A DNA stretch of 64,000 bases from Nannocystis sp. RBIL2. GTDB taxonomy: Bacteria; Myxococcota_A; Polyangia; Nannocystales; Nannocystaceae. The notes below the pieces were generated by a model. The model made no database searches. It was not told the origin of the DNA and saw only the letters and a list, made by a program, of their open reading frames with translations. Shown in pieces: positions 1-64,000 of this stretch (the stretch's first letter is position 1; each line of letters opens with the position of its first letter). The stretch is from NCBI RefSeq assembly GCF_026626745.1, contig NZ_JAPNJW010000002.1:1318151-1382150 (forward strand). Reading direction: 5' to 3'. The translations under genes and the position numbers were made by a program.

Positions 1-59
1 CGGCCGGGGTCGAACCATGGCTGGGGCTGTCGCTGCGGCTGCGACGTGGCGACGAGGAC

Positions 60-686
60 ATGTTCTTCAAGACATGTTCCAAGGGGGCGGTTCACGTGGC
101 CTGGCTGGTGCCGCTGGCGGTGGCGCTGATCTGGGGGCTCGGCTCGCTGACGCCGCACGTGTGGTGGCGGATGCTGGCGGCCAACCTGGTGCTGGTGCCG
201 CTGTGCCTCATGACGGTGCGCCTGCCGTGGCTCGAGCTGTGGCGCCCGAGCCTGCGCGGGCTGGTCCAGGGGGTGATGGCGGCGGCGGTGCTGGTCGCGG
301 CGGGCTGGCTCGGCAGCCAGGTGCTGTTCGCGGTGACGCCGGAGGCGCGGGCCGAGGTGGCGGCGGTGTACAGCTGGGTCCACCTGCTGCCGGCCGGGAT
401 CGCGGCGGTGCTGCTGCCGCTGATCGCGGCGGCAGAAGAGGTGGTGTGGCGCGGGGCGGTGGCGTTCGCGGTGGCGTCGCGCGCGGGGCCGTGGTGGGGC
501 GCGGCGACGTCGGCGGCCGCCTTCGCGGTCGCGCACGTGAGCCTCGGGGTGCCGGCGCTGGTGGTGGCGGCCGCCGGCGCGGGCTTCTTCTGGGCCTGGC
601 TCGGCCTCAAGACCCGCAGCCTGTTCGTGGTGCTGGTGTGCCACGTGCTGTGGGACGCGTGCGTGGCGGTGCTGCGGCTGTACTGA
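60..686 (+). CDS. CPBP-family intramembrane metalloprotease (CAAX protease / Abi domain). The true start is probably the in-frame GTG at 96, because the first 12 codons overlap a GACATGT motif copy with AT-ending codons.
   Basis: Conserved CPBP motifs EEVVWRG (EExxxR), FAVAHV (FxxxH) and HVLWD; several TM helices; high GC3 from codon 13 onward. Confidence 0.75.
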   Translation: MFFKTCSKGAVHVAWLVPLAVALIWGLGSLTPHVWWRMLAANLVLVPLCLMTVRLPWLELWRPSLRGLVQGVMAAAVLVAAGWLGSQVLFAVTPEARAEVAAVYSWVHLLPAGIAAVLLPLIAAAEEVVWRGAVAFAVASRAGPWWGAATSAAAFAVAHVSLGVPALVVAAAGAGFFWAWLGLKTRSLFVVLVCHVLWDACVAVLRLY

Positions 687-835
687 GCAGGTGTTCTTCG
701 GGACATGTCCGCAGGGACTCTCAGGGGTGCGGGCTCTCGACCTGTCTCTTCAGCCATGCAATGGACCGCCCGACGTTCCGACGACCGGGCGCTTGCGGAT
801 GCGACCCGCGCGCTGCTATCGAGGTCGCACCCCCC

Positions 836-2680
836 ATGAGCTGGACTCCGTTTCCCTCGGCCTCGATCACCCACCTCCCTCCTGCTCCGCGCGCGCCGTC
901 GCTGCAGATCTTCGCCGGCAAGCCGCACGCGCTGGCGTTCCTCGCCGACGGCTCGCTGGTGGTCGGCGGCAGCCACGGGATCACGCTGCACGATCCGGCC
1001 GCACCGTCGCCGCCGCGCGCCAGAGTCGCCGTCGTCGGCGTGTCGTGGATGGTCGCGCACCCCGACGGCGAGTCGGTGCTCGCGCTGGCCCACGGTCCCG
1101 GTGGTCGGGTCATGGTCCGCGTGTGGCCGGGGTCGGGGCGCGTGGTCGAATTGCTGCCGCGCGATCGCCTCGGCGACTACTTCCGCGGCGCCCTCTCGCC
1201 CGACGGCGCGCGCCTGGTGTGGCACCGCGAGGGCACGCCGCCGGCGCTGTGCTCGGCCGATGCGCTGACGGGCGCGTCACAGGAGGAGGTGGCGCTGCCG
1301 CCGGAGGTCGCGGAGGCGACCTGGCTGGCGGTGCGCCCCGACGGGGTGGTCTTCCTCGGCGGCGAAGCGATCGTGGCGGTCCACCCCGACGGGAGGATCG
1401 AGCCGATCGACGACTCTCCGTTCTTCGCCGGGTTCAAGCCGTTCTTTGTCGACGCGCGCGGCCTGATGGGCAAGGGCGGCGAACGGGCCGCGTTCGTCGA
1501 CGGCGCGATCGAGCGGCTGGAGAATCTGCCCAAGCGGGCCAGCGGCGGGACGATCGCGTACGACCGCAGCCGCGTCACCCTCTACGCCCAGCTTGGCGCG
1601 GTGCAGGTGTGGGACGTCGCGGAGCAGCGGGTGCTGTTCACCGCCGAACTGGAGGGCGCCACGGGGCAGATGCCGGGCTGGGCGGGTCAGTCGGCGGCGG
1701 CGAGCGCGACCCATGTCGCTGCCATCGATCACGCGACGGCGGCGGTGCGGATCTGGCACGTCGACCAGCCGCAGCAGCCGATCGCAGCGTTGACCGACTA
1801 CAGCCTCGGGGCGCAGCGCCTGGTGATCCGCGGCGACGCGCTGACGCTGCAGTCGTGTCAGCCCGCCAACTCGCTGCCGTCGGTGATGACGATCGAGCTC
1901 GGCAGCGGAGCGATGAAGCTGCTGGATCAGTGCGAGGTCCACGACATGGCCGCGACCGCCGACGGGCAGCGCCTGCTCGTGCTCCACCTGCGCTACCCCA
2001 TGCGGCCGCTGAAGGTCACGCAGTTCGACGCCGCCGGCGAGCCGGGCGAGTCGATCGAGGTCCAGCAGGGCGCGGGTCAGCTGGCGCTGGCGCCCGACGG
2101 GCGGACCTGGGGCGTCACGTCGCACACCTATCCGGCGTCGCGCGCGACCGAGCCGACCGCGCACGCCCAGTGGCGCGCGTTCGGAGCGACGAAGTGGGCC
2201 AAGAACCTCAAGCTCAAGGGCCGCTGGCCGCGCATCGCCCTCTGTGACACTGCGGCGGCGGTGGTCGTCGGCCAGGAGCTGGTCGTAGTCGGGCTCGCCA
2301 AGGGCAAGACGCTGCTGACGCTGCAGTTGCCGACGCTCGCCGTGTGCGTGGCGATCAGCCGCGACGACGGGCGCGTCGGGCTGATGGGCGCCGATCGCCC
2401 GCGGATCGTCGAAGTGGCCGCGGGGACGGTGGTGGAGCTGCCGGCCGAGCTGCACGGCGAGCCGGCCTTCCACCGCTGCCTCTGCTTCGACGACGAGGGG
2501 CGCTGGCTGTTCGTCGGCCACCCCGCGGGACCGATCGTGCAGCACCGGGTGGCGGACGGCGCGACGCTGGCGACGCTGCGCTTCCACACGGACGCGGTCC
2601 GGGCGCTGACGTGGGCCGGCGGAGCGCTGTGGAGCAGCTCGGAGGACGGCACGATCGTCCGCTGGGGCGAGCTCGGCTGA
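836..2680 (+). CDS. WD40-like beta-propeller repeat protein
   Basis: About 614 aa with recurring propeller-blade-like repeats (e.g. VVGGSHGITLHD, GRVMVRVW, AAVRIWHVD, TIVRWGEL). High GC3 begins at the ATG at 836; upstream in-frame codons have mixed codon usage. Confidence 0.7.
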   Translation: MSWTPFPSASITHLPPAPRAPSLQIFAGKPHALAFLADGSLVVGGSHGITLHDPAAPSPPRARVAVVGVSWMVAHPDGESVLALAHGPGGRVMVRVWPGSGRVVELLPRDRLGDYFRGALSPDGARLVWHREGTPPALCSADALTGASQEEVALPPEVAEATWLAVRPDGVVFLGGEAIVAVHPDGRIEPIDDSPFFAGFKPFFVDARGLMGKGGERAAFVDGAIERLENLPKRASGGTIAYDRSRVTLYAQLGAVQVWDVAEQRVLFTAELEGATGQMPGWAGQSAAASATHVAAIDHATAAVRIWHVDQPQQPIAALTDYSLGAQRLVIRGDALTLQSCQPANSLPSVMTIELGSGAMKLLDQCEVHDMAATADGQRLLVLHLRYPMRPLKVTQFDAAGEPGESIEVQQGAGQLALAPDGRTWGVTSHTYPASRATEPTAHAQWRAFGATKWAKNLKLKGRWPRIALCDTAAAVVVGQELVVVGLAKGKTLLTLQLPTLAVCVAISRDDGRVGLMGADRPRIVEVAAGTVVELPAELHGEPAFHRCLCFDDEGRWLFVGHPAGPIVQHRVADGATLATLRFHTDAVRALTWAGGALWSSSEDGTIVRWGELG

Positions 2681-2785
2681 GTCTCCATGTTTGAAAAGAC
2701 ATGCTCGATAGGTCATGAGCCATAGGACATGTCTGCGAGGGCATGTCCCGAACGTCTGGCCGTGAGCACGGCTCGCGCCGAGCCC

Positions 2786-63095: not shown

Positions 63096-63128
63096 GGAAC
63101 AGGTGACCAGCGGAGGGCCGCGCCGCGC

Positions 63129-63848
63129 TCAGCGAGCGGCCGGCGGGGCCGCGGCCGGCTTCGGCGGCAGGCTGAACAGCGAGCCCAGCTCCTCGGCGGA
63201 GAACTTGCGCTTGGCGTCGACGGCCGAGAACGTGGTCACGGCCTCGTCGCCGCCGACCTCGACCACGCGCATGGTCGCGATCACCACCCCGTCGCCCGCG
63301 ATCTCGACCCGCTCGATCAGCTTGTCGAGCGGCGCCAGCTTCGGCTTCAGCTTCAGCGTCCAGCGCTGGCCCTCGGCCTGCAGGTCCATGGTGTACATGC
63401 TCGTCAGCGCCTCGCGGTCGCCGGCGAAGATCTTGACGAACGAGTCGACGAACAGCCGCACCGCCGGGCTCTTGTCGAGCGCGATCTCCTCGCGCCCGGC
63501 GTCGTCGGCCAGCTTGAGCGCGCTGCCGTCGATCACCACCACCGAGCGGGCCGGCTTGGCCGTGTGACGGGCCAGGCGCGGCTTCTTGCCGTTCGGCACG
63601 AAGTAGATGGTGCCCTCGTTGACGAGCGGCGCCGCCAGCAGCGCCATCCGCTTCTCCTCGCGGAAGCTGGCCTGCAGCCCGCTCATCCCGGCGAACTGCC
63701 CGAGCAGCTGGTCGAGCGTGATGCTGGCGACCATCGGCGCGGCCACGGTGATCGGCAGCGGCTCGGCCGCGCTCGCCTGGCCGATCGGACCGGTCAAAAA
63801 GACCAGGGCCGCGAGGACATGCGCGAAAAGACCTGTCCAAACGGACAT
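63129..63848 (-). CDS. LolA-like outer-membrane lipoprotein carrier-like protein
   Basis: Signal peptide; LolA-like fold markers (FxQ...NGKKPR...KLKP); located directly upstream of the MMPL exporter. Confidence 0.65.
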   Translation of the reverse strand: MSVWTGLFAHVLAALVFLTGPIGQASAAEPLPITVAAPMVASITLDQLLGQFAGMSGLQASFREEKRMALLAAPLVNEGTIYFVPNGKKPRLARHTAKPARSVVVIDGSALKLADDAGREEIALDKSPAVRLFVDSFVKIFAGDREALTSMYTMDLQAEGQRWTLKLKPKLAPLDKLIERVEIAGDGVVIATMRVVEVGGDEAVTTFSAVDAKRKFSAEELGSLFSLPPKPAAAPPAAR

Positions 63849-63883
63849 GCCCTTACGGAAAGGGGCGGGCGAGGATGGCGAGC

Positions 63884-64000
63884 TACACCAGGCGCTGGAG
63901 CAGAGCATCGGGCGTCTCCGGCAAGAGGCGACCTTCCTGGTCGGTGGTGACGAGGATCGTCTGCCCGCGAGCCGAGCAGCGGTCGTCCTTGAGGTTGCGG
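63884..64000 (-). CDS. 3' fragment of an upstream minus-strand gene (C-terminus ...TDQEGRLLPETPDALLQRLV), truncated by the window edge
   Basis: High-GC3 frame ending in a TAG stop at about 63884-63886. Confidence 0.4.

Follow-up and report, generated by a model that had tools for sequence, protein, structure and literature searches.

A 64,000-nucleotide stretch of the Nannocystis sp. RBIL2 genome (contig NZ_JAPNJW010000002.1, positions 1,318,151 to 1,382,150; the whole stretch is called the window below) contains regular rows of the half-sites GGACA and TGTCC between its genes. An earlier note on this DNA proposed either the binding motif of an abundant DNA-binding protein or a dispersed repeat family analogous to repetitive extragenic palindromes (REPs), bacterial interspersed mosaic elements (BIMEs) or Correia elements. 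The question raised by this locus is whether the repeated element acts through its sequence, as double-stranded DNA (dsDNA), or through the structures that its copies can form. Our analysis points to the former: the arrays may be phased dsDNA sites at gene ends for a putative abundant dimeric protein that would bind them cooperatively, a reading that we regard as evenly poised.

The density of the motif is indeed far beyond chance, as had been claimed. In the window, which has a G+C content of 73%, GGACATGTCC occurs 7 times against 0.04 expected, TGTCC-N4-GGACA 16 times against 0.02, and GACATGYCC 45 times against 1.14. Gene calls from a codon-usage model trained on the window itself (44 genes) leave 14.6% of the window as non-coding DNA, and this fraction contains 38 of the 45 exact GACATGYCC sites, which does not agree with equal frequency in coding and intergenic sequence. 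Most of the arrays that these crude calls place in coding DNA are weak matches or intergenic arrays inside merged open reading frames (ORFs). Maximal-order Markov k-mer enrichment was dropped because it hid the motif, whose sub-words are themselves enriched, and was replaced by shuffles and a position weight matrix. Alignment of the 45 sites shows exactly five bases before the next GACAT, and the iterated weight matrix defines the unit as a 10-bp palindrome, R-G-R-C-A-T-G-Y-C-Y (RRRCATGYYY in degenerate form), followed by four non-conserved bases. Both the head-to-head and the tail-to-tail arrangements described earlier are present, and they are a single structure read in two registers, because the unit is a 10-bp palindrome with a 4-bp spacer. 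Only the arrays of such units are real, since isolated units remain at the chance level (45 in the window against ~42 in order-3 Markov simulations), whereas arrays of at least two units number 33 against 1.4 expected in the same simulations, an enrichment of at least 23-fold, and arrays of at least three units 13 against 0.01. The arrays cover ~10% of the non-coding DNA of the window; extrapolation from the 33 arrays in 64 kb gives, roughly, an estimated ~500 arrays per Mb and ~6,000 per genome. Over the whole window, neither the Rfam 15 covariance models at gathering thresholds nor a tRNA scan produced a match.

The anatomy of the arrays was examined in 727 kb of Nannocystis DNA comprised of the window, a contig of Nannocystis sp. 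SCPEA4 (L001) and 80 loci of 8 kb. Unit-to-unit distances in this set include 256 at 14 bp, 2 at 13 bp and none at 15 bp, with further peaks at 28, 42, 56 and 70 bp, the counts at 14 and 28 bp being partly forced by the choice of the 80 loci for one three-unit array; the window by itself has 12 distances at 14 bp and one at 13 bp. The period, previously given as 14-15 bp, is strictly 14 bp, and this phase is held over up to 9 units. Arrays comprise 2 to 9 units; their number declines smoothly with size, and even unit counts are not favoured. The spacers are ~50% A+T in a genome of 27% A+T, and neighbouring spacers are nearly uncorrelated apart from a small excess of identity; some arrays (L033, L042, L015) contain recently duplicated units with identical spacers. 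Combinations of adjacent spacers are shared between loci 10 times against 12.5 expected by chance, therefore the arrays are not transposed copies of each other, and copy-paste transposition of whole arrays was rejected. Of 283 inner TGYCY-N4-RGRCA boxes, 185 (65%) are flanked by two intact outer half-units, from which it follows that the element consists of at least two whole palindromes.

With respect to genes, the arrays mark most 3' ends, and the earlier statement that they occupy almost every intergenic region was too broad. In the window, which is an unselected sample, four of the five convergent gaps with a length of 100 bp or more contain arrays, as do 11 of the 19 tandem gaps of that length; the figures for divergent gaps and for gaps shorter than 100 bp are only one of six and one of ten. 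In the 727-kb set, which consists mostly of loci chosen because they contain an array, arrays of at least two units number 87 in the 101 convergent gaps, 98 in the 279 tandem gaps and 10 in the 88 divergent gaps, all of these last being long, so that divergent promoter gaps are avoided. In tandem gaps, the median distance from the upstream stop codon to the array is 24 nt, some arrays beginning on the stop codon itself, and the median distance from the end of the array to the following start is 209 nt. A scan for terminators made of a hairpin and a T-tract found 6 against 3.9 expected in 20 kb, which is no enrichment, with motif units overlapping just two of them; arrays are not followed by a T-tract, the downstream T fraction being 0.10-0.17. 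Downstream of two arrays there are canonical hairpin and T-tract terminators, at 49184-49156(-) and 51672-51646(-), in the order gene, array, terminator; therefore the arrays are at least sometimes transcribed.

Selection on the units can be followed in orthologous arrays. The array of gene 46404-47696 aligns among the window, N. pusilla and N. bainbridge, and the array at 49345 aligns between the window and N. pusilla, in both cases with perfect phase and no indels. Identity in these alignments is 84% for the cores (unit positions 2-9), 50% for the edge positions and 43% for the spacers. As far as sequence comparison goes, the unit cores are shown to be under purifying selection and the spacers to evolve freely. 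There is turnover of arrays as well: strain SCPEA4 lacks the six-unit array at 49345, and a 58-bp block present 3.6 times in the window occurs once in that strain.

The system is genus-wide and appears to be undescribed. The gene content of the window is myxobacterial, with Ser/Thr kinases fused to WD40 or tetratricopeptide repeat (TPR) domains and a major-vault-protein-like gene; the VWA protein encoded at 54407-57313(-) is 94% identical to its counterpart in SCPEA4, whose contig is syntenic with the window, and parts of the window have 90-94% DNA identity to N. pusilla Na p29 and N. bainbridge. A scan of the genomes of 185,579 species with the pattern GRCATGYC-N6-GRCATGYC-N6-GRCATGYC, for which ~0.3 chance matches are expected at uniform composition, found at least 101 loci. 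Among the matches listed, ~80 loci come from N. bainbridge, N. exedens, N. pusilla, N. radixulma, N. punicea and metagenome-assembled genomes (MAGs) of Nannocystis or Nannocystaceae, and the six Nannocystis species among them keep one consensus. Most matches outside Nannocystis are plain 14-bp microsatellites with identical spacers, and the viral contigs scanned contain no match to the pattern. A relative with a 75% identical orthologue (L002) has few units and zero arrays, and in a relative with a 63% identical orthologue (L003) the motif is at background. A literature search on the motif, on Nannocystis repeats and on PadR operators found no description of such arrays. In these distant Nannocystaceae, convergent and 3' gaps contain unrelated lineage-specific repeats, e.g. 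GGGCTGCCTGCGGGCCATGATGGTG and CCCGCGGGTCGTCGGCC (L003 15124-15351; L002 2435-2583, 12809-13032 and 17036-17183), and gene-end repeats of changing sequence may be a habit across the family.

The idea of an abundant DNA-binding protein is favoured by the palindrome, the strict spacing, the selection on cores, and the lack of both covariation (see below) and copy-paste; the binder itself is putative. It would be an abundant, sequence-specific and probably dimeric protein that recognises dsDNA. Its binding would require two or more neighbouring units and would be cooperative along the 14-bp register, in which successive units would lie ~120 degrees apart around the helix and three units would return to the same face. 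At gene ends, such a protein could block or terminate read-through, acting as a roadblock, could insulate neighbouring and especially convergent transcription units, or could manage supercoiling; we infer these roles from the placement. The arrays would probably grow by 14-bp slippage and then be kept through selection on their cores.

A PadR-family winged-helix regulator is the best lead to this protein, because adjacent units spell ATGT|CC-NNNN-GG|ACAT, in general ATG(T/C)-N8-(A/G)CAT, which corresponds to the PadR consensus operator ATGT-N8-ACAT (PMC3506622, PMC5428041). Three (T)GACATGTC(A) palindromes spaced at 14 bp, with differing AT-rich spacers, occur in eight loci outside Nannocystis, in several cases near a gene start. 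In three actinobacterial loci (L051 7610-7645, L069 2488-2523, L070 4624-4659), three copies of TGACATGTCA at exactly 14-bp spacing are located in the divergent gap of a padR gene (PF03551 and PF10400), whose product is homologous to B. subtilis PadR (PDB 5x11), and a gene for an RPE65-type, carotenoid-oxygenase-like dioxygenase; this site is probably an uncharacterised PadR operator comprised of two overlapping ATGT-N8-ACAT boxes. Assembly on repeat arrays is known for two proteins of the PadR fold, StbA and AspA, and two or more repeats are required in the case of StbA (bioRxiv 10.1101/2022.04.29.490116). By analogy, a PadR-type protein is our first candidate for the reader of the arrays, a possible though tentative identification. 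The further proposal, that a Nannocystis-specific and possibly PadR-fold protein polymerises on the ~6,000 arrays as a genome-wide protein-based terminator, insulator or supercoil barrier, seems to us unlikely.

As separate observations, two Rhodobacteraceae MAGs contain three copies of GACATGTC at 14-bp spacing with AT-rich spacers (L032 3874-3909, L037 481-516, L047 1292-1327, L071 762-797), near genes that include an XRE-HTH/2TM gene, purA and an amidohydrolase gene. The search for an autoregulated binder beside arrays in divergent gaps led to ordinary genes or a group II intron as neighbours, and to no DNA-binding proteins. In N. pusilla there is a group II intron or retron-type reverse transcriptase gene (L065 2756-3148) with a long structured upstream region, and an array lies at the far end of this upstream gap.

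Several observations weigh against a dsDNA-binding, PadR-type reader. On the sense strand relative to the upstream gene, units of the G3..T8 form outnumber the A3..C8 form by 90 to 52 (p=0.002 per unit) or, counted per array, by 38 to 22 (p=0.05), and predicted RNA of the sense strand is slightly more stable than that of the antisense strand (p=0.02); these two biases count against the reading because a symmetric dsDNA site predicts neither. The canonical terminators beyond two arrays imply that arrays are transcribed and are not the sole terminators, and the 3' placement could partly reflect tolerance at the least harmful location and not function. The PadR link is an analogy built on motif geometry and one orthologous actinobacterial operon. 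PadR operators normally lie in promoters, not at 3' ends. Searches by phmmer with two actinobacterial PadR queries against six-frame ORFs of the 727 kb of Nannocystis DNA, a sample equal to only ~6% of one genome, found no match, which is a weak negative, and no padR gene is present among the Pfam-scanned genes of the window (40 of the 44 called). Both the operators of B. subtilis PadR and LmrR and the Nannocystis arrays have an inverted repeat with the canonical 8-bp spacer; the former are one or two boxes in a promoter beside the regulated gene, usually with padR adjacent, whereas Nannocystis has thousands of 2-9-unit arrays located after stop codons.

The main rival is a REP- or BIME-like function, in which units in the 3' untranslated region pair as a 10-bp stem with a 4-nt tetraloop that protects mRNA from 3' exonucleases or aids termination; in a variant of this explanation, a single-stranded DNA form might be mobilised by an enzyme like the REP-associated tyrosine transposase (RAYT). 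Its strength lies in the placement at 3' ends and in convergent gaps, a few nucleotides from stop codons and, for two arrays, between the stop codon and a canonical terminator, and in the weak strand bias, seen in the slightly more stable sense-strand folds and in the preference of the sense strand for G.U-compatible variants (107 G.U against 57 A.C). The requirement for at least two units with intact outer half-units and the loop-like spacers of ~50% AT are also consistent with it, as are the strong hairpins of the predicted RNA folds; any two units can pair, however, each being palindromic, and every covariation test is against a selected stem. The Watson-Crick fraction between neighbouring units equals the expectation under independence at all ten stem positions, with mutual information of ~0, and the same holds in two-unit arrays and in sense-oriented arrays with G.U allowed. 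Neighbours pair no better than random units (~7 of 10 positions), and no covariation is seen within units. The arrangement of asymmetric units (GACATGCC and GGCATGTC) is direct in 93 cases and inverted in 70, the reverse of what a hairpin model predicts, and direct runs such as AGACATGCCC x4 and CGACAGGTCC x4 pair poorly, yet are at least as common as inverted ones. Even unit numbers are not preferred, the loop length does not vary (256, 2 and 0 distances at 14, 13 and 15 bp), GNRA or UNCG loops are not in excess on the sense strand, GTAG and any Rfam match are absent, and the unique spacers mean that the arrays are not copies. All hairpin tests (5-bp arms, 10-bp stems, two-unit arrays, G.U pairs, arrangement and loops) were negative save for the weak sense-strand bias, and we consider a selected hairpin function rather unlikely.

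Non-functional, self-propagating minisatellites, which would expand by slippage in the least harmful gaps while biased repair or conversion holds the consensus, are an improbable explanation. Slippage does leave its marks in the recently duplicated units with identical spacers (L033, L042, L015), in the slight excess of identity between neighbouring spacers, and in the strain differences in copy number (the 58-bp block at 3.6 copies or one, and the 49345 array that SCPEA4 lacks). However, spacers are entirely different in most arrays, cores at 84% and spacers at 43% identity without indels in three species and a single consensus kept in six are not expected from it, and slippage alone leaves the independent origin of arrays at thousands of 3' ends unexplained. 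Sites of a restriction-modification system or an orphan methyltransferase, serving as epigenetic marks of gene ends, are most improbable: the core G-R-C-A-T-G-Y-C does contain RCATGY with the same R/Y degeneracy, which we take to be an NspI-type recognition site and probably a coincidence, but restriction targets are usually avoided and not enriched, and the conserved G2/C9, the 14-bp phasing and the need for at least two units are left unexplained.

Set beside known systems, the proposed protein-binding arrays occupy the niche of REPs and BIMEs while differing in anatomy, and the analogy drawn in the earlier note applies only to the former. Like the elements of enterobacteria and pseudomonads, they are short extragenic palindromes in regularly spaced clusters, located at 3' ends and in convergent gaps, and take up on the order of a percent of the genome. 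REPs are imperfect stem-loops of 20-40 nt with a GTAG end, alternating orientation and a link to RAYT, whereas the Nannocystis unit is a 10-bp perfect-type palindrome with exact 4-bp spacers, and its estimated number is ~10 times that of REPs. Pairing at the level of random expectation takes the place of a conserved, covarying stem-loop, and unique spacers that of near-identical copies related over their whole length. The GTAG/CTAC end is absent from the position profiles of units, spacers and flanks, and no transposase was found among the Pfam-scanned window genes (40 of 44), no whole-genome scan for RAYT having been made. We file the arrays as a variant of dispersed extragenic repeats that lacks the defining features of REPs and BIMEs, with a real chance of something more unusual.

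There is also a likeness in architecture to the MetJ metboxes, StbA stbS, ParR parC, TubR tubC and AspA sites, with 2-10 short, exactly phased sites bound in a cooperative or filament-like manner, for which one site does not suffice. At the level of sequence, the enrichment of arrays of at least two units and their invariant spacing suggest the same for Nannocystis; the known arrays number one or a few in each replicon and lie at promoters or centromeres, whereas those of Nannocystis are at gene ends genome-wide. Intrinsic terminators share the position just after stop codons and a dyad symmetry that gives GC-containing hairpins, but they have a U-tract, whereas the arrays lack a T-tract and conserve sequence and not structure. 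Miniature inverted-repeat transposable elements and Correia elements have a defined length, terminal inverted repeats, a target-site duplication and near-identical copies, and the arrays instead have 2-9 units with no shared internal sequence; clustered regularly interspaced short palindromic repeats (CRISPR) combine repeats of 23-50 bp with spacers of similar length, against a unit of 10 bp and a spacer of 4 bp here. RRRCATGYYY is formally identical to the half-site of the p53 response element, which requires two RRRCWWGYYY decamers; this likeness is almost certainly a coincidence, as we know of no p53 family member in bacteria (no such protein was sought here).

Within the window, units were confirmed at all of the places given earlier, of which 51700-51745 is merely degenerate, and the six units described at 49345 extend to 49424. 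The individual sites are as follows.

697-761: units GGACATGTCC (701-710) and CGACCTGTCT/AGCCATGCAA (738-761), downstream of the stop of gene 3-686(+).
2693-2752: array AGACATGCTC, then GGACATGTCT gcga GGGCATGTCC, in the convergent gap 2681-2785.
3714-3773: four units, 22 nt past the stop of the Ser/Thr kinase-TPR gene 3791-6682(-).
6804-6831: two units, 66 nt past the stop of gene 6893-8734(-).
11988-12307(-): two-unit pairs CGACCTGTCC-N4-GGACAGGCGC, one per copy of a 72-bp in-frame tandem repeat.
18324-18625: four clustered arrays with 11 units, beginning 10 nt past the stop of gene 17338-18318(+) and including a 79-bp tandem duplication at 18341-18508.
23181-23194: lone unit AGACAGGTCC, abutting the stop codon of gene 21762-23183(+).
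25565-25787: three arrays of 2-3 units each, downstream of the stop of gene 25876-28290(-).
29139-29170: three units forming the 30-bp perfect palindrome ATGACC tcgg GGACATGTCC ccga GGTCAT, in the convergent gap 28974-29263.
35060-35097: three units, 17 nt past the stop of gene 34021-35043(+).
37718-37745: two units, 45 nt past the stop of the histidine kinase gene 35355-37673(+).
39321-39393: two two-unit arrays in the convergent gap 39217-39400.
45842-46270: dispersed units, each followed by CTTCGRCCAG, about every 90 bp in an 882-bp divergent gap; an atypical case.
47695-47778: array of six to seven units from the stop codon of gene 46404-47696(+), in a convergent gap, with in-phase orthologous arrays in N. 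pusilla and N. bainbridge.
49345-49428: six units, 5 nt past the stop of the hydrolase gene 49429-50538(-), with an orthologue in N. pusilla and none in strain SCPEA4.
51700-51745: degenerate three-unit array between the stop of gene 51751-52761(-) and the terminator 51672-51646(-).
52879-52906: two units, at a position conserved in strain SCPEA4 (L001 ~14740).
54207-54379: a three-unit and a four-unit array (AGACATGCCC x4), downstream of the stop of the VWA gene 54407-57232(-); the orthologous gap of SCPEA4 has other arrays.
59203-59429: arrays from the stop codon of gene 58285-59205(+), within the 58-bp tandem repeat x3.6.
60033-60064: two units, GGCCATGTCC ttca CGACATGGCC, in the convergent gap 59964-60072.
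63815-63856: three units, GGACATGCGC gaaa AGACCTGTCC aaac GGACATGCCC.

Three of these sites have further features. The 58-bp repeat (59231-59439) contains a unit pair and GAGAGACACTC; it is a strain-variable minisatellite, since the SCPEA4 gap contains a single copy (L001 7990-8040). The 72-bp repeat (x3.8, 87% matches) is located in the linker between the kinase and WD40 domains of gene 10244-13888(-), a disordered coding stretch that seems to have captured, or to tolerate, the intergenic element. The atypical divergent gap at 45842-46270 has four single units and is flanked by an aminoacyl-tRNA synthetase-like gene and an FAD oxidoreductase gene; its pattern of single units with CTTCGRCCAG is kept in N. 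pusilla and N. bainbridge (L031 3980-4900; L094 2200-2500) and might represent a small RNA or a leader. Elsewhere, the internal ATG of a unit is the likely start codon of a gene at window positions 60, 16014, 19843 and 28398 and at L004 ~3380.

Among the genes of the window, 30753-33290(-) encodes an eukaryote-like vault homologue of 845 aa with Major Vault Protein shoulder and repeat domains and an SPFH/Band-7 domain, and adjoins a radical SAM gene (29264-30583). The neighbouring genes 51751-52761(-) and 53297-54094(-) encode proteins with the ALK/LTK glycine-rich domain (PF12810), best known from animal receptor kinases, and the pair is kept in SCPEA4.

The arrays also have practical consequences. 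The recurrent artefactual ORF starts reading M S F R T C P, which the earlier note had correctly ascribed to the motif, are ATGTCC, a spacer and ACATGTCC translated in frame, and such spurious ATG-initiated ORFs are a trap for the annotation of Nannocystis genomes. The arrays also provide a simple diagnostic mark by which the genus can be recognised in metagenomes.

Known dispersed repeats such as REPs, BIMEs and Correia elements are conserved stem-loops copied by a transposase, and the Nannocystis arrays behave otherwise: a whole genus keeps thousands of arrays in which the 10-bp palindrome and the 14-bp register are fixed, the spacers are free, pairing is unselected and each array is unique. 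On the further, unlikely proposal of a protein that polymerises on them, they would represent a sequence-encoded "gene-end code" that does the job of hairpin terminators or REPs elsewhere. If a site-specific protein does mark gene ends genome-wide, the arrays would provide a tractable system for studying the delimitation of transcription units in high-GC bacteria with few canonical terminators, and the insulation of convergent genes.

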